From: Deltaproteobacteria bacterium
GTDB taxonomy: Bacteria > Desulfobacterota > Binatia > DP-6
Direction of reading: 5' to 3'
Assembly (NCBI GenBank): GCA_005888095.1
Contig: VBKF01000103.1
Span: 35,845-99,844, forward strand
Length of the DNA: 64,000 bases
The notes below the pieces were generated by a model. The model was not told the origin of the DNA, made no database searches, and saw only the letters and a program-made list of their open reading frames with translations. Both the position numbers and the translations under genes were made by a program. How positions within the stretch are numbered: the stretch's first letter is position 1; each line of letters starts with the position of its first letter. Of this stretch, positions 25,152 through 61,318 are shown piece after piece.

Positions 25152-26312
25152 CTATCCTTCCGCGGGCCGAGGTGCAATCGCACGATCGACGGCCATCACT
25201 CCGAGCCCGCCGAGCGTCGTCGCGCCGAGGAGCGCGAACATCCCCCGGTATCCCACACCCTCCGCCAGCGCGCCGCAGACGGGAGTCCCCAGCACGGCGC
25301 CGAGGTCCGACGCTGCCGTGAGCAGGCTCACCGCGGTGCCGGCCAGCCGCGCCGGCGCGCGCTCGATGGCGAGCGCGTTGAGCACGGGGAAGAGCGACCC
25401 GTGGCCCGCGCCGCAGACGATCCCCGCGAGCACGAGGACGCCCGGGCGCGGCAGCAAGCAGAGGAGCCCGAGCCCTGCACCGATGCACGCGAAGGCCGGG
25501 ATGGCCACCCGGTGCGGCTCGACGCGGTCGAGGAGGCGACGGCCGACCAGGCGCAGCACGATCGAGGTGGTGGCATAGGCGGCAAAGAAGGGCGCGGCCC
25601 GTGCGAGGCCGAGATCCCGCGTGAAGGGGGCGACGAAGAAGAACGCGGCGTTGACGCCCATGCCGAACACGACCGTGGCGAGCAGCACCCGGGCGAGCGC
25701 GCCGTCGGCGAGGGCCCGCCATCGGCCGGTTGCGCCGCCTGCGGCAGAGGTGGCCGGAGGTACGGGCACGGCCAGGGTCAACGAGAACGAGAGGAGGGCG
25801 AAACCGGCAGCCGTGAGGAAGAAGGCGCTGAACCCGGCACGGGCGATGACCACCTCGCCGAGCGACGGGCCGAGGCCGTTGGTGAGCATGCCCGCCGCGC
25901 CGAAGACGGCGATGCCCTCCGCCCGCCGCCCCGGCGGCACGAGGTCGGCGGCATACGTGAAGTAGCTGGCGAAGAGCGCCCCCCAGAGGACGCAGTGCAC
26001 GACGGTGGCGGCGAGGAGCCAGGGCCCGAGCCGACCGAGTGCCAGAAAGGGCAGGAACGAGGCGGCGTTGAGACCGTTCGCCCAGAGCAGCACGCGGCGC
26101 CGCCCGAAGCGGTCGAGCGCCAGGCCGACGAGCGGCCGCGCCGCCACGCTCGCCGCCTCGCCGGCGCCGAGCAGGAGCCCGATCGCGACGCTGCTGCCGC
26201 CCAGCCGGCGCACGAAGAGCGGGAAGAGGAGGAACATCGCGAGGCTCATGCCCCCGGTCACGTGAATGGCGCACGCGATCCAGAAGGCGCGGGTGTAGAG
26301 CGGCGACGTCAA
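25152..26312 (-). CDS. MFS transporter
   Basis: 386 aa, 12 predicted TM helices; MFS motif A-like [14 protein letters not shown]. Confidence 0.8.
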
Positions 26313-28574: not shown

Positions 28575-30242
28575 TTACATCTCCATGACGAAGGGGAGGA
28601 TCACGGGACGGCGGTCGAAACGCTTGAAGTACCGCCGGAGCGCCTTGCGGACCTCCTCCTTCACCTCGGCGGGGTCGGTCCGCGACTCGGGGTTGATCGC
28701 TGCCAGCGCGTCCAGGACCACCCCCCGTGCCCGCTCGAGGATCTCGGGGCTCGCCTCCTCGGTCACGACCCCGCGCGAGATGAGGTCGGGCCCGGCGACG
28801 ATCTCGCCCGACTGCTGCGCGATCGCCAGGACGGCGAGCACGAGGCCGTCCTCGGAGAGATGGCGCCGGTCGCGCAGGACCTCGTCCTCGACGTCGCCGA
28901 TCCCCTTGCCGTCGACGAAGACGCGCCCCGCGGTCACCCGCTCGCGGCGGCGCGCGACGCCCGCCGCGTCGAGCTCCAGCACGTCGCCGTCCTCGAGCAG
29001 GTGGCACGATTCGGGAGGGATGCCCACCTCCTCGGCCAGCCGAACGTGACGGACGAGGTGGCGGTACTCGCCGTGCACGGGGATGAAGTGGCGCGGCCGG
29101 ACGAGGTTCAGGACGAGCTTCAGCTCCTCCTGCGAGGCATGGCCCGAGACGTGCACCGCGGCCGTGCGACCGTAGTGCACGACGGCGCCGCGCCGGTAGA
29201 GATGGTTCACGAGGCTCGAGATCGCGCGCTCGTTGCCCGGGATGATGCGCGAGGAGAGGATCACCGTGTCCCCGGGCTCCAGCGTCACCTGCTTGTGGGC
29301 GTCCATCGCGATCCGCACCAGGGCGGATGCCGCCTCGGCCTGGCTGCCGGCGGTGATGATCACCACCCGATGGCGCGGCAGGTCGCGGGCGCTGCCGGTG
29401 TCGACGAGCGTCCCGTCGGGGATCGCGAGGTGCCCGAGGTCGCGCGCGATGGCGGTGTGCACGCCGAGGCTGCGGCCGACGAACGCGACGCGCCGGCCGA
29501 AGCGGACCGCCAGGTCGATCACCTGCTGCATGCGATGGATGTGCGAGGAGAAGGTCGTCACCAGGATGCGGCCGGTCGCCTGGCGGAAGATCGTGTCGAA
29601 CTCCGTGCCGACCGACCGTTCCGACGGCGTCACGCCGGCGTGCTCGACGTTGGTCGAGTCGGAGAGCAGGAGCAGCGCGCCCTCGGCGCCGAGCTCGCCG
29701 AGTCGGACGAGGTCGGGCAGCCGCCCGTCGAGCGGGGTCTGATCGAGCTTGAAGTCTCCCGTGTGGACGACGGTGCCGACCGGCGTGCGGATCGCGAGCC
29801 CGACCGAGTCCGGGATGGAGTGGGTCATCGCGATGGGTTCGACCGCGAAGGGGCCGACGCGGCAGGGCTCGACGTCGTAGAGGAGCAGCGGGGCCGAGAG
29901 GCCGCGCTCGCCGAGCCGCTCGCGGACGAAGCCCAGGGTGAGCCTCGTGCCGTAGACGGGGACCGGCCGCTCGCCGAGCACGTACGGCAGCGCGCCGATG
30001 TGGTCCTCGTGCCCGTGGGTCAGGAAGATCGCCTGGAACCGTTCGCCGAGGCCGCGGATGTACGTGATGTCCGGGATCGCGACGTCGATGCCGAGCATCC
30101 GCTCGTCCGGGAACATGACGCCGCAGTCGACGGCAATCGCCGCGTCCCCGTACTCGAGGACGAGCAGGTTGAGGCCGATCTCGCCGAGGCCGCCGAGCGG
30201 GATGACCCGCAGCGGCGTACCCGCGCCGTTCCCCCCCTTCAC
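28575..30242 (-). CDS. rnj: ribonuclease J (metallo-beta-lactamase/beta-CASP)
   Basis: HxHxDH motif FLTHGHEDHIGALP, beta-CASP and the RNase J C-terminal domain. Confidence 0.9.
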   Translation of the reverse strand: MKGGNGAGTPLRVIPLGGLGEIGLNLLVLEYGDAAIAVDCGVMFPDERMLGIDVAIPDITYIRGLGERFQAIFLTHGHEDHIGALPYVLGERPVPVYGTRLTLGFVRERLGERGLSAPLLLYDVEPCRVGPFAVEPIAMTHSIPDSVGLAIRTPVGTVVHTGDFKLDQTPLDGRLPDLVRLGELGAEGALLLLSDSTNVEHAGVTPSERSVGTEFDTIFRQATGRILVTTFSSHIHRMQQVIDLAVRFGRRVAFVGRSLGVHTAIARDLGHLAIPDGTLVDTGSARDLPRHRVVIITAGSQAEAASALVRIAMDAHKQVTLEPGDTVILSSRIIPGNERAISSLVNHLYRRGAVVHYGRTAAVHVSGHASQEELKLVLNLVRPRHFIPVHGEYRHLVRHVRLAEEVGIPPESCHLLEDGDVLELDAAGVARRRERVTAGRVFVDGKGIGDVEDEVLRDRRHLSEDGLVLAVLAIAQQSGEIVAGPDLISRGVVTEEASPEILERARGVVLDALAAINPESRTDPAEVKEEVRKALRRYFKRFDRRPVILPFVMEM

Positions 30243-31139: not shown

Positions 31140-31433
31140 ATGCGCGCGGTCGGGCTGAAGGTGCTCAAAAACAAGCTGAGCGAGTACGTACGCCTCGCTG
31201 CCCGGGGGGAGACCGTGCTGGTCACGGACCGCGACCGGGTGGTGGCCGAGCTGGGTCCGCCGCGAGAGGGCCGGGCCCCGAGGCTCGCCGACGCCCAGCT
31301 CGCCGAGATGATGCGGAAGGGGATCCTCGCCCCGCCACTCGTGTCGCGCGAGACCCCATTGCCTCCCCGGAAGCCGATCGCGCCTCTCGCCGAGCTCCTG
31401 CGCGAGCTCGACCAGGATCGCGCGGACCGGTGA
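31140..31433 (+). CDS. vapB: type II antitoxin (Phd/YefM or VapB-like) paired with a PIN toxin
   Basis: 97 aa; MRAVGLKVLKNKLSEYVRLAARGETVLVTDRDRVVAEL is the typical antitoxin N-terminal fold. Its stop overlaps the vapC GTG start. Confidence 0.75.
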   Translation: MRAVGLKVLKNKLSEYVRLAARGETVLVTDRDRVVAELGPPREGRAPRLADAQLAEMMRKGILAPPLVSRETPLPPRKPIAPLAELLRELDQDRADR

Positions 31434-31813
31434 TCTACGTCGACACCTCCGTGGTGCTGGCGGAGCTTCTCGCCGAGGATCGCTCGCCACCGGCGCGGCT
31501 CTGGGAGTCCGACCTCGTGTCGAGCCGACTGCTCGAGTACGAGCTCTGGACCCGGGTGCACGCGCGTAAGCTGACGTCCACCCACGGCGACGCGGCGCGC
31601 GCGATCGTGGCGAGGATCGCGTTGCTCGACCTCTCGCCGCTCGTCCTCGGACGGGCGCTCGACCCGTTTCCCGTCGCGGTCCGCACGCTCGACGCCTTCC
31701 ATCTGGCGTCGATGGACTATCTCCGAGGGGGCGGTCAAACCGTCGTGCTCGCAAGCTATGACGACCGTCTCGTCCGCGCCGCCAGCGCGCTCGACTTCCC
31801 GCTCTTCGAGTGA
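31430..31813 (+). CDS. vapC: PIN-domain ribonuclease toxin
   Basis: 127 aa; IYVDTSVV (first acidic residue), internal ...LDAFHLAS and ...SYDD acidic residues of a PIN fold. GTG start overlaps the antitoxin TGA. Confidence 0.8.
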   Translation: MIYVDTSVVLAELLAEDRSPPARLWESDLVSSRLLEYELWTRVHARKLTSTHGDAARAIVARIALLDLSPLVLGRALDPFPVAVRTLDAFHLASMDYLRGGGQTVVLASYDDRLVRAASALDFPLFE

Positions 31814-44840: not shown

Positions 44841-45065
44841 CTACGCGGGCTGCGAGCCGGGAGTGCCCTTGATGCCGTACTTGCGCTGGAAGCGCTCGAC
44901 CCGGCCGGCGGTATCGACGAGCTTCTGCTTGCCCGTGAAGAACGGATGGCACGCCGAGCAGATCTCGACGTGGATCTGGGGCACGGTGGAACGGGTCTCG
45001 ATGACATTGCCGCAGGCACAGACGATCTTGGCCTTGTCGTACCGCGGATGAATGCCTTCCTTCAT
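44841..45065 (-). CDS. rpmE: 50S ribosomal protein L31
   Basis: MKEGIHPRY...CxCG...[10 protein letters not shown] zinc ribbon of L31 (type A). Confidence 0.85.
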
Positions 45066-53783: not shown

Positions 53784-54017
53784 ATGGCGATCGTCACCGC
53801 GTCCCGTCTGACGAGCAAGTACCAGGCGACGATCCCCGTCGAGGTGCGGCGGGTGCTGCGCCTCAAGCAGGGCGATGCCGTCCAGTTCGAGATCGACGGC
53901 GAGCGCGTGACGCTGCGGCGTCAGACCGCGTCGGATCGTACCTACCTGCGCGGGGTGGAGGCCAACCTCTCGGAGTGGAACTCGCCGTACGACGACGAGG
54001 CGTATGGCGACCTATGA
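53784..54017 (+). CDS. mazE: type II antitoxin, AbrB/MazE/SpoVT family
   Basis: 77 aa; swapped-hairpin motif KYQATIPVEVRRVLRLKQGDAVQFEI and an acidic C-terminus. Confidence 0.8.
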   Translation: MAIVTASRLTSKYQATIPVEVRRVLRLKQGDAVQFEIDGERVTLRRQTASDRTYLRGVEANLSEWNSPYDDEAYGDL

Positions 54018-54342
54018 GCCGTGGAGTGTGGTGGTCGTGCCCTTCCCGTTCGTGGACCGGCGACAGACAAAGCGCCGCCCTGCCGTGGTGCTCTCGCCGG
54101 AGCGGTTTCAGGCCGAGCACCAGTGCTCCGTGCTCGCCATGATCACGGACGCCCGCAACCCTCGCTGGCCGTCGGACGTGCCGATCCGCGATCTCACCGC
54201 CGCGGGGCTTCCCCTCGCCTCGGTGTTTCGCTGCAAGGTGTTCACGCTCGACAGTCGCCTGATCCTGTCCCGCATCGGCACCCTCTCGAGCACCGACCGG
54301 AAGGCAGCCGGCCGAGCGTTGCGCGCGGCGATCGTCCGGTAA
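54004..54342 (+). CDS. mazF: type II toxin, MazF/PemK-family endoribonuclease
   Basis: 112 aa; VVVVPFPF...KRRPAVVLS...AMITD matches the PemK/MazF fold. Overlaps mazE by 14 nt. Confidence 0.85.
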   Translation: MATYEPWSVVVVPFPFVDRRQTKRRPAVVLSPERFQAEHQCSVLAMITDARNPRWPSDVPIRDLTAAGLPLASVFRCKVFTLDSRLILSRIGTLSSTDRKAAGRALRAAIVR

Positions 54343-55650: not shown

Positions 55651-56892
55651 TTAGAAGAACTCGCGCAGCCACTCGACCATCCGCTGCCGCACCACCCCGA
55701 TCTGCCCGCGCACGCCGTCACCGCCGCGTGCCGCCGCCGGACCCTGTTGCCTCAGTCCGTGCAGCACGAGACCTACTGCGGTCGAATACATGGGACTCGC
55801 TACCGCGTCAACCAACCCGGTCAGATGAAGGGGCACGCCGAGACGCACCGGGAGGTGGAAGACCCGCTCCGCGAGCTCGGTGAGACCGGCGAGCGCCGCG
55901 CCGCCGCCGGTGAGCACGAGGCCCGAGGTGAGCAGCCCGTCGCAGCCCGCGCGCTCGATCTCGTGCTTGACGAGCAGGAGCATCTCCTCGGCGCGCGGCT
56001 CGATGACGTCGGCGAGCGCGCGGCGCGAGAGCAGATGCGGCTCGCGGCCGCCGACCCCCGCCACCTCGATCGTCTGCTCCACCGGCGCCGTCTGCACCAG
56101 CGCCGAGCCGTGGCGCTGCTTCAGACGCTCGGCCTCGCCGAACGGGGTGCGCAGCGCCGCGGCGAGGTCGTTGGTCACGTGGCCGCCGCCCACGGGCAGG
56201 ACGGCCGTGTGGCGGATGGCGCCGGCGTGAACGACGCTCACCGACGTCGTGCCAGCACCCAGGTCGACGAGGGCCACGCCGAGCTCGCGCTCCTCGGGCG
56301 TCAGCACCGCCTCCGCCGCCGCCAGCGGTCCGCCGAGCACGTCGCGCACGTGGAGCCCCGCGCGGTTGCAGCACTTGACGACGTTCTGTCCCGAGCTGAC
56401 CGCGCCGGTCACGATGTGGACGCGGGCCTCGAGGCGCACGCCCGCCATGCCGACCGGCTCCTTGATGCCGTCCTGATCGTCGACGATGAACTCCTGGGGC
56501 AGGACGTGGAGCACCTCGCGGTCCGCGGGCAGCGCGACCGCCCGCGCCGCGTCGATGACACGCTCGATGTCGCCCGGCGCCACCTCGCGGTTCTTCACGG
56601 CGACGACGCCGTGGCTGTTGAAGCCCTTCAGGTGGCTGCCGGCCGCGCCCGCGATGACGCTGCGGATCTCGCAGCCCGCCATGAGCTCGGCCTCGTCGAC
56701 CGCCCGCCGGATCGACTCCACCGTGGCCTCGATGTTGACGACCACGCCTTTCTTGAGGCCGCGCGAGACGGCCGTGCCGATCCCCGTGATCTCGACGCCA
56801 CCCTCGGCGAGCTCGGCGACGATGACGCCGATCTTGTAGGTGCCGACGTCGAGCCCCACGACCAACGGATTGCGCTTCCGCATGCGTGCCAT
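55651..56892 (-). CDS. ftsA: cell division protein FtsA
   Basis: Actin-like ATPase; [18 protein letters not shown]...[12 protein letters not shown]... Confidence 0.9.
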
Positions 56893-56901
56893 TGGGCCCT
56901 C

Positions 56902-57741
56902 TCAGGTCCTGGTCGGGCGCCGGCCCGCCGCCTTCCCGGGACGCGTGCGGACGATCACCTCGCCGTCGAAGAGCAGGGAGACGCCCGCCATGGCGGCCTC
57001 GCGTCCGTTCCACGCCGCCAGCACGGGCGGCAACAACGCCAGGCGGGAGCCGAAGCCCGCCCAGCCGACCTCGATCGGCACCGTCGGCCGGACGGGCAGG
57101 AGGACGAGCCCGCGCACCCGGTCGACGTGGATCTCCGAGACCGTCCCGACCCCGCCCGGGGCATGGGCCGCGGCGTGCAGGAGCGCGAGCGCCCGGCGGA
57201 TCGCGCGCGGCCCGAACGACTCGCGGCCGCCGAGGTCGGCCTCCGCGAGCCCGGTCACGTACGGGAGGTCGTGCGGATCGGTCGCGCCGACGTCCGCGAA
57301 CACCCGTCCGTTCGCGGCCACGTAGTAGAGGCGAGTCGCGAACGCGAGGATGGCCGCCGGGCGGTACTCGCGTACCTGGATGACGACCCGATGCGGCAGC
57401 TCCCGCGTGACCCGCGCCGAGCGCACCCAGGGCTGGCGGCGAAGCCGGGCCTCAGCCGCCGGCACGTCGACGTCCCAGATGCTCATGCCCGATTCGATGC
57501 CGGCGGCGGCGCGCAGCGCGTCGGGCGCGAGCCGCCCGTGGCTCCGGACCACGACCTCGCGGACCGCGAAGTAGGGATGGCCATGGACGCCGTCCCGGAC
57601 GAGGGGCCAGCAGGCGAGGGTCGCGGCGATCCCGAGCCCGGCGGCGAGCCCGCGGCGGACGGCGACGCCGAACCGCGCGTCCCGACGGCGGGCGAGCGGC
57701 CGCCGGCGGCGGCGGTTGCGCGCGCCGAAGAGCCGGCTCAC
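56902..57741 (-). CDS. ftsQ: cell division protein FtsQ (POTRA)
   Basis: Basic cytoplasmic tail, one TM helix, then POTRA (FAVREVVVRS...). Start placed at the GTG overlapping the murB stop (GTGA). An alternative ATG at 57777 would overlap murB by 40 nt. Confidence 0.75.
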   Translation of the reverse strand: MSRLFGARNRRRRRPLARRRDARFGVAVRRGLAAGLGIAATLACWPLVRDGVHGHPYFAVREVVVRSHGRLAPDALRAAAGIESGMSIWDVDVPAAEARLRRQPWVRSARVTRELPHRVVIQVREYRPAAILAFATRLYYVAANGRVFADVGATDPHDLPYVTGLAEADLGGRESFGPRAIRRALALLHAAAHAPGGVGTVSEIHVDRVRGLVLLPVRPTVPIEVGWAGFGSRLALLPPVLAAWNGREAAMAGVSLLFDGEVIVRTRPGKAAGRRPTRT

Positions 57742-58674: not shown

Positions 58675-60070
58675 CTACTGGACCAGGCGGAGCGGCAGCC
58701 CCGCCTTGAGGAGGGTGAGCAGCTCGTCGGCCGTGCGGTGGATGTCGCCCGCCCCGAGGGTCAGCACCAGATCCCCGCGACGGACGGTCCCGAGCAGGGA
58801 CTCCGCCACCTGCTCGCGCGCCGGCACCCAGCGCACGTCGAGATGCCCGCGCCGCTTGAGCGCATGAAAGAGCTCCTCGCCCGAGGCGCCCTCGAGCCGC
58901 TCCTCACCGGCCGCGTAGACGTCGGTCAGCACGAGGACGTCGACCTCGTCGAACGCCTCCAGGAATTCGTTGAACAGGTCGCGGGTGCGGGTGTAGCGGT
59001 GCGGCTGGAAGGCCGCCACCAGCCGGCGCGAGAAGCCCTCCCGCGCGGCGCGCAGCGTGGCGCGGACCTCCTCGGGATGGTGCGCGTAGTCGTCCACCAC
59101 GAGCACGTCCTGCTCCTCCCCCTTCACCTCGAAGCGGCGATGGATGCCGCCGAACTCCTCGAGGGCGTGCGCCGCGATGCGGAACGGGATCTCGAGGTCG
59201 GCGGCGACGGCGAAGGCGGCGAGCGCGTTGAGGGCGTGATGGCGGCCGGGCATGCGGAGCCGGACGGGGCCGAGCCGCCGCTCGCCGCGCCAGACCTCGA
59301 ACACGGTCTCGAGCCCGTCGACGCGGAGGTCGCGCGCCTGCCAGTCGGCGTCGGGCGACGTCCCGTAGGTGACGAAGCGCTTGCGGATGTGCGGCACCAG
59401 GGCGCGCACCGCCACGCTGTCGAGGCAGAGGACGGCCAGGCCGTAGAACGGGACGCGGTGGATGAACTGGAGATACGCCTCGCGCACCCGGTCCATGTCC
59501 CGGTAGTAGTCGAGGTGCTCGCGGTCGATGTTGGTGACGACGGCGATGATCGGCGAGAGGAGGAGGAAGGTGCCGTCGCTCTCGTCGGCCTCGGCGACCA
59601 GGAACTCCCCCTGGCCGAGGCGGGCGTTGGTGCCGAGTGTGCGGAGCTTGCCGCCCACGACGACCGTCGGGTCGCGTCCCGCCTCGCGCAGCACGGCCGC
59701 CACCAGCGAGGTGGTCGTCGTCTTGCCGTGCGTGCCGGCCACCGCGACGCCGTACTTCATGCGCATGAGCTCGGCGAGCATCTCGGCGCGCGGCACGACG
59801 GGGATCTTCAGCTCGCGGGCGCGGCTCGCCTCGGGGTTCGCGAAGGTGACCGCCGAGGAGATGACGAGCACGTCGATGTCGTCGGTGATACGGGCGGCGT
59901 CGTGCGGGCCGATGTCGATGCGGGCACCGAGGCGTGCGAGCCGGCGCGTCGTCTCGCCGTCGACCAGGTCGGAACCCGTCGTAGCCGAGCGTCAGCAGCA
60001 CCTCGGCGATGCCGCTCATGCCGATGCCGCCGATGCCGACGAAATGCACTCGCCGCTTCCGCCCGGTCAC
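58675..60070 (-). pseudogene. murC: UDP-N-acetylmuramate--L-alanine ligase with an apparent frameshift near 59975-59985
   Basis: The N-terminal 30 aa (HFVGIGGIGMSGIAEVLLTLGY) are in one frame, starting GTG 60070 after GGAGGAAG. The remainder (TTGSDLVDGETTRRL...VAVAGTHGKTTTT...) is in the +1 frame. The junction falls exactly at the conserved LGYxxSGSDL block, and the span length is not a multiple of 3. Confidence 0.55.
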
Positions 60071-60181
60071 CGCACTTCCTCCGTGGCGAGATCGCCCGGA
60101 CCACGCGCCCCACTCCAAGCCCACCACGAGCGATGCAATTACAGAAGCCTGGCGCCCTCTTCAAGTGGGCCGGCGATAATT

Positions 60182-61318
60182 CTAGCTCATCGGCGGCCCC
60201 CCTCCGCCGCCGATCAGACGCACGCACTCCGCCGCCACCTGCTCGGCGGCGTCCGGACGGCCGAGCGCGCGGGCTCGCGTGGCCATCGCCGCGCGCCGCA
60301 CGGGGTCGTCCACCAGGCCGCGGATGGCGGCGGCGAGGCGCTCCCCGTCGCACTCCCGGTCGAGGATCATCTCCGCCGCGCCGGCGGCGACCAGCACCTC
60401 GGCGTTCAGCCGCTGGTGGTCGTCGGCGGCGTGGGGATAGGGCACGAGGATGGCGGGCAGGCCGACGGCGGTGATCTCGGCGCAGCTCATGGCACCCGCG
60501 CGCGCGATCACCAGATCGGCCGCCGCGTAGGCGCCGCCCATGTCCGCGATGAAGGGCTCGACGCGCGCGGCGAGCGCGAGCGCCCGGTACGCCCGGCGCA
60601 CCTCTTCGAGGTCCGCGGGGCCGGTCTGATGGGTCACCTCGAGGCCCCGGGCCGCGGCCCCGAGCGCCGCCAGCGCCTCCACCACGGCGACGTTCAGGCG
60701 ATGCGCGCCGGCACTCCCCCCGAAGACGAGCAGGCCCGGCCGGGCGCGCGGCGCCCGCGTCGCGCCGCCCAGGACCTCCCGGCGGATGGGGTTCCCGGTG
60801 TGGGCCGCGCGGCCGCGCGGGAAGAAGCGGGCGGACTCGGCGAACCCGACGCAGACCCGTGCCGCGAGCCGCCCGAGGAAGCGGTTCGCCGCGCCGGGCA
60901 CGACGTTCTGCTCGAGGAGGACGATGGGGATGCCCGAGAGCCGCGCCGCGAGCACGACGGCGACCGACGCGTAGCCTCCGACGCCGACCACCAGACGGGG
61001 CCGGAGCTCGCCCAGGAGGCCCCGACCGCGCACCGCGCCGCGCGCCACCGCCGCGAGCCCGGCCGCGGCGCGCCCCGCGCCGCCGCCGCGCAGCTGCTGC
61101 CCCGGCAGCAGGCGGAGCGGGTAGCCGGCCGCGGGCACGACGCGCGCCTCGATGCCGCTCGCGGTGCCGACGAAGGTGACGTCGAAGCCCTGCTCGCCGA
61201 GGGCATCGGCGAGGGCGAGGCCGGGATAGAGGTGCCCTCCCGTGCCGCCGCCGGCGATGACCACGCTGCCTCGCCGTGCCGCGCCCGGCCGGGCCGGCTG
61301 CGATGCGGCGCTCATCAT
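60182..61318 (-). CDS. murG: undecaprenyldiphospho-muramoylpentapeptide beta-N-acetylglucosaminyltransferase
   Basis: VVIAGGGTGGHLYPGLALA... GT28 signature. ATGA overlap with the ftsW stop. Confidence 0.9.
   Translation of the reverse strand: MMSAASQPARPGAARRGSVVIAGGGTGGHLYPGLALADALGEQGFDVTFVGTASGIEARVVPAAGYPLRLLPGQQLRGGGAGRAAAGLAAVARGAVRGRGLLGELRPRLVVGVGGYASVAVVLAARLSGIPIVLLEQNVVPGAANRFLGRLAARVCVGFAESARFFPRGRAAHTGNPIRREVLGGATRAPRARPGLLVFGGSAGAHRLNVAVVEALAALGAAARGLEVTHQTGPADLEEVRRAYRALALAARVEPFIADMGGAYAAADLVIARAGAMSCAEITAVGLPAILVPYPHAADDHQRLNAEVLVAAGAAEMILDRECDGERLAAAIRGLVDDPVRRAAMATRARALGRPDAAEQVAAECVRLIGGGGGPPMS

Follow-up and report, generated by a model that had tools for sequence, protein, structure and literature searches.

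A private 5-nt deletion splits the dcw-cluster gene murC at a switch between strain haplotypes and is probably a local assembly error

The 64-kb stretch of DNA analysed here (the window, to which all positions refer) has a G+C content of ~73% throughout and carries a dcw cluster at its right end. On the minus strand the cluster reads murD-ftsW-murG-murC-murB-ftsQ-ftsA-ftsZ, with gene identities taken from Pfam-labelled genes in colinear loci that share 99.8% DNA identity with the window. The host, an uncultured soil bacterium of high G+C content, probably belongs to the class Binatia. As expected for a dcw cluster, murC lies between murG and murB in the colinear loci, in agreement with an earlier sequence-only reading of the window that placed the gene mid-operon. 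A non-coding gap of 111 nt separates murG from murC (60071–60181) and keeps its length in all conspecific loci, whereas most of the other dcw genes here overlap or abut; this gap might hold an internal promoter or regulatory element. Two toxin-antitoxin pairs, labelled by Pfam in colinear loci, are found on the plus strand: a MazE/PemK pair directly after ftsZ (53784–54342) and a Phd-like/PIN pair near ssb (31140–31813).

The gene at the centre of this analysis is an ordinary single-copy murC of the dcw cluster, encoding UDP-N-acetylmuramate--L-alanine ligase, whose coding sequence is spread over two reading frames (Table 1). A Shine-Dalgarno-like GGAGGAAG stands 4 nt upstream of a GTG start codon (60070–60068, minus strand), which opens an N-terminal fragment, VTGRKRRVHFVGIGGIGMSGIAEVLLTLGYD, that bears the GxGGxG nucleotide-binding loop. 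Translation from 60070 confirms that the sequence-only reading had set this frame correctly. The second frame begins at GGT 59976 and reads GSDLVDGETT... (GSDLVDGETTRRL...GTHGKTTTT...LRLVQ) up to a stop codon at 58675–58677. The domain order of MurC, namely PF01225, PF08245 (Mur_ligase_M) and PF02875 (Mur_ligase_C), is preserved across the two frames, with PF01225 itself divided between them: profile positions 2–24 are matched in the first frame and positions 26–95 in the second. The rest of PF01225, Mur_ligase_M with its GTHGKTT P-loop, and Mur_ligase_C all lie in the second frame, and the translations contain both the N-terminal GIGGxGMSG loop and the ATP-binding P-loop G-T-H-G-K-T-T. An intact homologue recovered by protein search (P0001; 466 aa, 99% identical) reads LGYDVSGSDL and matches MurC structures in the PDB at E = 6e-142 (phmmer); by tblastn, the remainder of murC in the window aligns to its residues 33–466 at 99.5%.

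The single uninterrupted ORF of ~460–490 codons expected for MurC is absent from the window, where the fixed spacing LGY-x-[VI]-S-G-S-D after helix 1 has become LGYD/GSD (the stroke marks the junction). Since the C-terminal frame is closed upstream by a TGA codon (59994–59992), the change of frame must fall between this codon and 59976; the GC3 frame plot shows the coding phase changing at ~59975–59985. According to the ORF list and the translation, the C-terminal frame holds no ATG, GTG or TTG ahead of the GTG at 59871, and the first possible start of the C-terminal piece is residue 68 of the intact protein. The N-terminal frame runs on out of frame past the junction (GFRPGRRRDD...) until it meets a stop codon at 58904, and Pfam matched nothing in it beyond residue 30; the run-on is open only because stop codons are rare at the local G+C content (~74%). 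The translations, the GC3 phase and the Pfam split therefore bear out the main claim of the sequence-only reading, that murC is split by a frameshift at the LGY block, and its subsidiary claims hold as well: the rest of the gene lies in another frame with no start codon of its own, and no long homopolymer is found at the junction, where the sole run is the GGG that the junction itself creates.

Table 1. Features of the interrupted murC gene and its immediate surroundings, in window coordinates.
Feature	Position	Strand	Basis
Shine-Dalgarno-like GGAGGAAG	60075..60082	minus	Read from sequence; same in intact conspecific contigs
murC N-terminal fragment, 31 codons, VTGRKRRVHFVGIGGIGMSGIAEVLLTLGYD	59978..60070	minus	Translation, Pfam, tblastn (P0001 residues 1-31)
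TGA closing the C-terminal frame, 5 codons upstream of GSDL	59992..59994	minus	Translation
Deletion junction, 5 bases TCTCC (gene strand) missing between G59977 and G59976	59976..59977	minus	Alignments, allele census
Rest of murC in the second frame, 433 codons (GSDL...LRLVQ) and stop codon	58675..59976	minus	Translation, ORF list, Pfam, tblastn
Out-of-frame run-on of the N-terminal frame (GFRPGRRRDD...), 357 codons	58904..59977	minus	ORF list, translation
Divergent haplotype tract, directly 3′ (gene orientation) of the deletion	59890..59965	minus	Mismatch maps, alignment

In the intact allele this point is occupied by GAC GTC TCC GGT (D V S G), so that TAC GAC GTC TCC GGT TCC in relatives corresponds to TAC GAC G/GGT TCC in the window, and codons Val32–Ser33 minus one base have been removed. 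A 1-nt deletion or a 2-nt insertion had been guessed from the sequence and an alignment to relatives proposed as the check; the relatives do show an intact LGYxxSGSDL, as anticipated, but the guessed size was wrong, the lesion being a 5-nt deletion (TCTCC) with respect to every relative examined. The same 5 nt are missing relative to the two closest species representatives (67–68% amino-acid identity), which read LGYQ[VI]SGSDL; both are MAGs, one of them labelled Candidatus Binatia, and the scan of genome contigs from which they come returned no relative above 68% amino-acid identity. The contig that encodes P0001 (L081) aligns to the window over 6,126 nt at 99.36% identity, with one 5-nt gap. 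Once Val-Ser is put back, the MurC of the window equals another retrieved protein (P0125), which occurs on 17–20 contigs, at 466/466 residues. A search for direct repeats or microhomology flanking the deletion found none, and only a weak 9-nt imperfect inverted repeat was present.

The site is intact in all 31 other contigs that span it, 25 of which are 99.0–99.9% identical to the window. These 25 near-identical loci, which represent ~21 distinct contigs, all show the same single 5-nt gap relative to the window and no other window-private indel, and a further six loci over the site (five JGI matches and the ENA contig L127) are likewise intact. In the allele census, 29 loci carry GTCTCC, while two synonymous variants, GTGTCG and GTTTCG, are found in one locus and in L127, respectively. 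The contigs derive from JGI soil metagenomes, ENA assemblies (k141_ and CRIT18-1_..._METAG-scaffold records) and NCBI GCA_009771695.1; many share their sampling sites, and re-assemblies of the same data may be among the ENA records, so the contigs compared are not all independent. Among JGI metagenome contigs, the deletion allele itself had 0 exact matches, and a gap-tolerant pattern had 5, all intact. At the protein level, the 90%-identity cluster of P0001 has 61 members, and LGYD[VI]SGSDL is found in all 15 members listed. The spacing G-x-G-G-x-G-M-S...G-S-D is kept in 134/134 retrieved homologues, none of which is split there. The same spacing is found in 49 GTDB loci from diverse phyla, a statement limited to sequences in which the motif could be located, as the regular expression missed 33/80 GTDB loci and a loosened form added only 2 MurC N-termini.

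Elsewhere in the window, the comparison of positions 29039–64000 (35 kb, up to ~30 loci deep) revealed no other window-private indel, and a GC3/ORF scan of the full 64 kb revealed no other frame break. Three candidate frame breaks were rejected as normal neighbouring genes with their own starts: metF followed by folE (12945/12946), rpmE followed by prfA (44840/44841), and an MFS transporter gene followed by lolA (25152–25195).

An authentic frameshift could in principle be expressed by recoding, or its two pieces could act as a split enzyme. Recoding could involve a ribosomal slip (+1 near GAC-GGG-U, or −2) or slippage during transcription, and would yield LGYDGSDL, in a MurC two residues shorter than usual. 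That an essential gene is frameshifted while its remaining sequence is perfectly preserved is the sole point in favour of such a reading. The interruption is not conserved, since every conspecific and more distant orthologue is intact, even on contigs 99.9% identical to the window, and the occurrence of an uninterrupted gene in genomes this close excludes a conserved programmed event. The sequence CUC GGC UAC GAC GGG UUC CGA contains no CUU-UGA-type site, X-XXY-YYZ heptamer or homopolymer; there is no Shine-Dalgarno-like element upstream of the junction, no zero-frame stop for 357 codons and no obvious pause site. Local folding at the junction is no better than that of shuffled sequences (z = −0.8; the intact allele has z = −0.12). 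The shortening of β-strand 2 by two residues is seen in no homologue examined, and translation of the C-terminal piece by itself could begin no earlier than residue 68 of the intact protein. The three hallmarks of a programmed frameshift (a slippery, stop or hungry codon; conservation; a stimulatory element) are thus all absent from the junction. With no slippery motif, nearby stop, significant structure or conservation, both recoding and a functional split gene can effectively be dismissed, and the lower rank that the sequence-only reading gave to a recoded, authentic frameshift agrees with the comparative evidence. It is also very improbable that the deletion is real in one Binatia-like soil strain in which murC function is kept by low-level +1 frameshifting (GAC-GGG-U), by an intact second copy or by merodiploidy; if true, this would show that an essential gene for the cell wall can, in nature, outlast a newly acquired frameshift.

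The deletion falls at a switch between two haplotypes. On its 5′ side (60026, 60066 and 60074) the window carries the A-type alleles, and it does so again from 59889 downstream; the intervening divergent tract contains 7 sites at which the window differs from 24–25 of the 25 near-identical contigs and equals L115, a relative of only ~95% identity to the window. All seven tract SNPs must be synonymous, because the repaired protein equals P0125. When the window is compared with A-type contigs of 99.8% identity, the tract holds most of the mismatches (7/8 against L087 and 7/9 against L084). Among contigs of at least 99% identity, SNPs private to the window stand at three positions, 56845, 59962 and 59965; the last two are no more than 15 nt from the deletion. 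Another contig, L104, has 5/7 of the L115-type alleles together with an intact murC, and L127 represents a further haplotype, also intact, with 20 differences across 59890–60074. At least four haplotypes (L091-type, L104, L115-type and L127) therefore occur within ~200 nt at the 5′-end of murC (59890–60075), in contigs that are otherwise 99.7–99.9% identical, which suggests that the diversity here reflects short recombination tracts. Contigs of other assemblies end at ~60197 (L086), ~60122 (L127) and ~60035 (the L107 contig), none of them more than ~220 nt from the deletion. Taken with the haplotype diversity, these nearby contig ends mark the 5′-end of murC as a strain-variable spot where assembly graphs branch. 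A second shared haplotype tract is found in ftsA (56225–56260). In addition, an ENA METAG-scaffold record (L122; ERZ28573723, CRIT18-1_SAMN08902841 scaffold_100) is 100.000% identical to window positions 29039–49665 (20,627 nt); if this 46,031-nt scaffold is colinear throughout, it would end at window position ~59884, 6 nt from the divergent tract.

The adjoining donor-like SNPs could also belong to a real event, though this is less likely. The deletion might be a very recent 5-bp null mutation in the sampled lineage or a sub-population of it, possibly introduced where a short tract acquired by recombination from a related strain ends. Cells with this allele would either not survive, or persist only transiently, or depend on a second, intact murC in another part of the genome. 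The seven SNPs do resemble a recombination import, the intact gene of L104 contains a shorter version of this tract, the lesion is not of the homopolymer type of error, and the remainder of the compared 35 kb is free of private indels. Against this, murC is essential for peptidoglycan synthesis, and the deletion costs part of β-strand 2 of the UDP-binding Rossmann-type domain and frameshifts 433/466 codons. No second murC is found in the 64 kb, in which the only other Mur ligase match is murD at 30% identity. The allele is absent from the 31 other contigs and from the JGI contigs, and a lethal variant should not dominate a consensus sequence. The further disabling or non-synonymous changes that mark a pseudogene are also missing: the repaired protein shows zero additional amino-acid changes and the 7 nearby SNPs are all synonymous. 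A genuine null allele is thus unlikely, though it deserves more weight than any form of recoding; a real deletion would represent a new lethal or complemented allele, and its interest would be modest and confined to population genetics.

Comparable lesions occur in sister assemblies. The JGI contig L101 (3300026537 Ga0209157_1004718) lacks 25 nt in murG at window position 61260, inside VIAGGGTGG, and 35 nt in ftsQ (57068–57101), both out of frame and private to this contig. A private 1-nt deletion at 54895 in L108 (ENA ERZ27286434 k141_821528) splits ftsZ into calls of 269 aa and 122 aa, and L113 has a private, intergenic loss of 2 nt. In L124 (ENA ERZ27315202 k141_2436995), a private 1-nt deletion and a 1-nt insertion, 7 nt apart and compensating, are found at the 3′-end of the L31 gene rpmE (44860–44867). 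The rate of private indels is approximately one event per 80–90 kb over ~0.45 Mb aligned (summed alignment lengths), and against this background one private indel in the window is unremarkable. The out-of-frame lesions in murG, ftsQ, ftsZ and murC bear no trace of passage through selection and look like errors. Two MurC proteins from the searches are also irregular. In an NCBI-sourced MurC of 434 aa from another MAG (P0012; 87% identical), inspection by eye shows an in-frame gap of 32 residues, PRAEMLAELMRMKYGVAVAGTHGKTTTTSLVA, that takes out the ATP-binding P-loop; a further assembly lesion or a dead allele is the probable cause. A 465-aa MurC from a 2,661-nt ENA contig (P0002) looks chimeric by eye, its first ~190 residues being clearly divergent from the MurC of the window and the remainder identical.

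Local assembly errors are a recognised cause of corrupted gene sequences in metagenome assemblies and MAGs and are suspected to be prominent in IDBA-UD assemblies; assemblers are also noted to retain, at the ends of scaffolds, sequence that is not unique (Chen et al., 2020, Genome Res 30:315, PMC7111523). The murC lesion has two of the attributes of such an error: it is private to one assembly and sits at a site of strain heterogeneity or graph ambiguity. We accordingly consider the 5-nt deletion most likely to be a local error of the assembly or its consensus, made at a junction of haplotypes in a strain-variable stretch, and hold this reading with good confidence. The assembly or sequencing indel favoured from the sequence alone is in this respect supported by the privacy of the lesion, the 466/466 identity of the repaired protein, the haplotype switch and the lack of any recoding feature. 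The contig path would have changed between two co-occurring strain haplotypes in the variable 5′-end of murC, and TCTCC at codons Val32–Ser33 would have been lost from one assembled sequence during this change of path. The murC of the organism itself would then be expected to be intact and to encode a 466-aa enzyme, as in all other assemblies of the population, and reads would be expected to carry the intact GACGTCTCCGGTTCC, with few or none across GACG/GGTTCC. Three considerations weigh against an artefact: real molecules may carry the deletion; base-calling errors are not typically 5-nt deletions that lack a homopolymer, a flanking direct repeat and a significant hairpin; and a pure de Bruijn-graph assembler needs reads that hold the junction k-mers. 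As to whether the lesion is an artefact or a true null allele of recent origin, we infer from the comparison of contigs that the deletion is probably absent from the DNA of the dominant cells.

The split murC is most likely not a biological feature and is of low interest under any reading considered. The main value of the observation is as a quality flag, marking a murC that is ordinary apart from what is probably a defect of assembly. If annotated unrepaired, the contig would show a murC pseudogene or two gene fragments, from which an uncultured soil lineage would be wrongly credited with a defective cell wall. Frameshifts of this kind can be classified without reads by comparing conspecific contigs, the useful signals being privacy to one assembly, zero further decay and a coincident haplotype switch.

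Read across both frames, the protein is a full three-domain Mur ligase like canonical MurC (structures including 8dof/29zm, 6x9f, 2f00 and 1gqq/1p3d). Unlike canonical MurC, its ORF is interrupted, with two codons minus one base missing from the LGY-x-V/I-S-G-S-D strand. An essential gene whose product requires a programmed +1 frameshift is prfB, encoding RF2, in which CUU UGA C is preceded by an upstream Shine-Dalgarno-like element. Like prfB, murC is essential, and here its product would need a change of frame near the 5′-end; unlike prfB, the murC junction has no slippery codon, in-frame stop or Shine-Dalgarno-like stimulator, and it is not conserved even in 99.9%-identical genomes. The mur genes are genuinely pseudogenised in some wall-less or host-restricted bacteria, with which the window shares a frameshift in a gene for peptidoglycan synthesis. 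In contrast to those pseudogenes, the dcw cluster around murC is intact, murC has no other change, and the gene is intact in the population of the host, a free-living soil bacterium. The local assembly errors described by Chen et al. (PMC7111523) are defined by a consensus without perfect read support, and the murC lesion, unlike these, is assigned to the class from contig comparison. It otherwise resembles them: it is an isolated, small lesion in a protein-coding gene of one assembly only, it lies in a strain-heterogeneous region where other contigs terminate, and sister assemblies of the population carry analogous private lesions.
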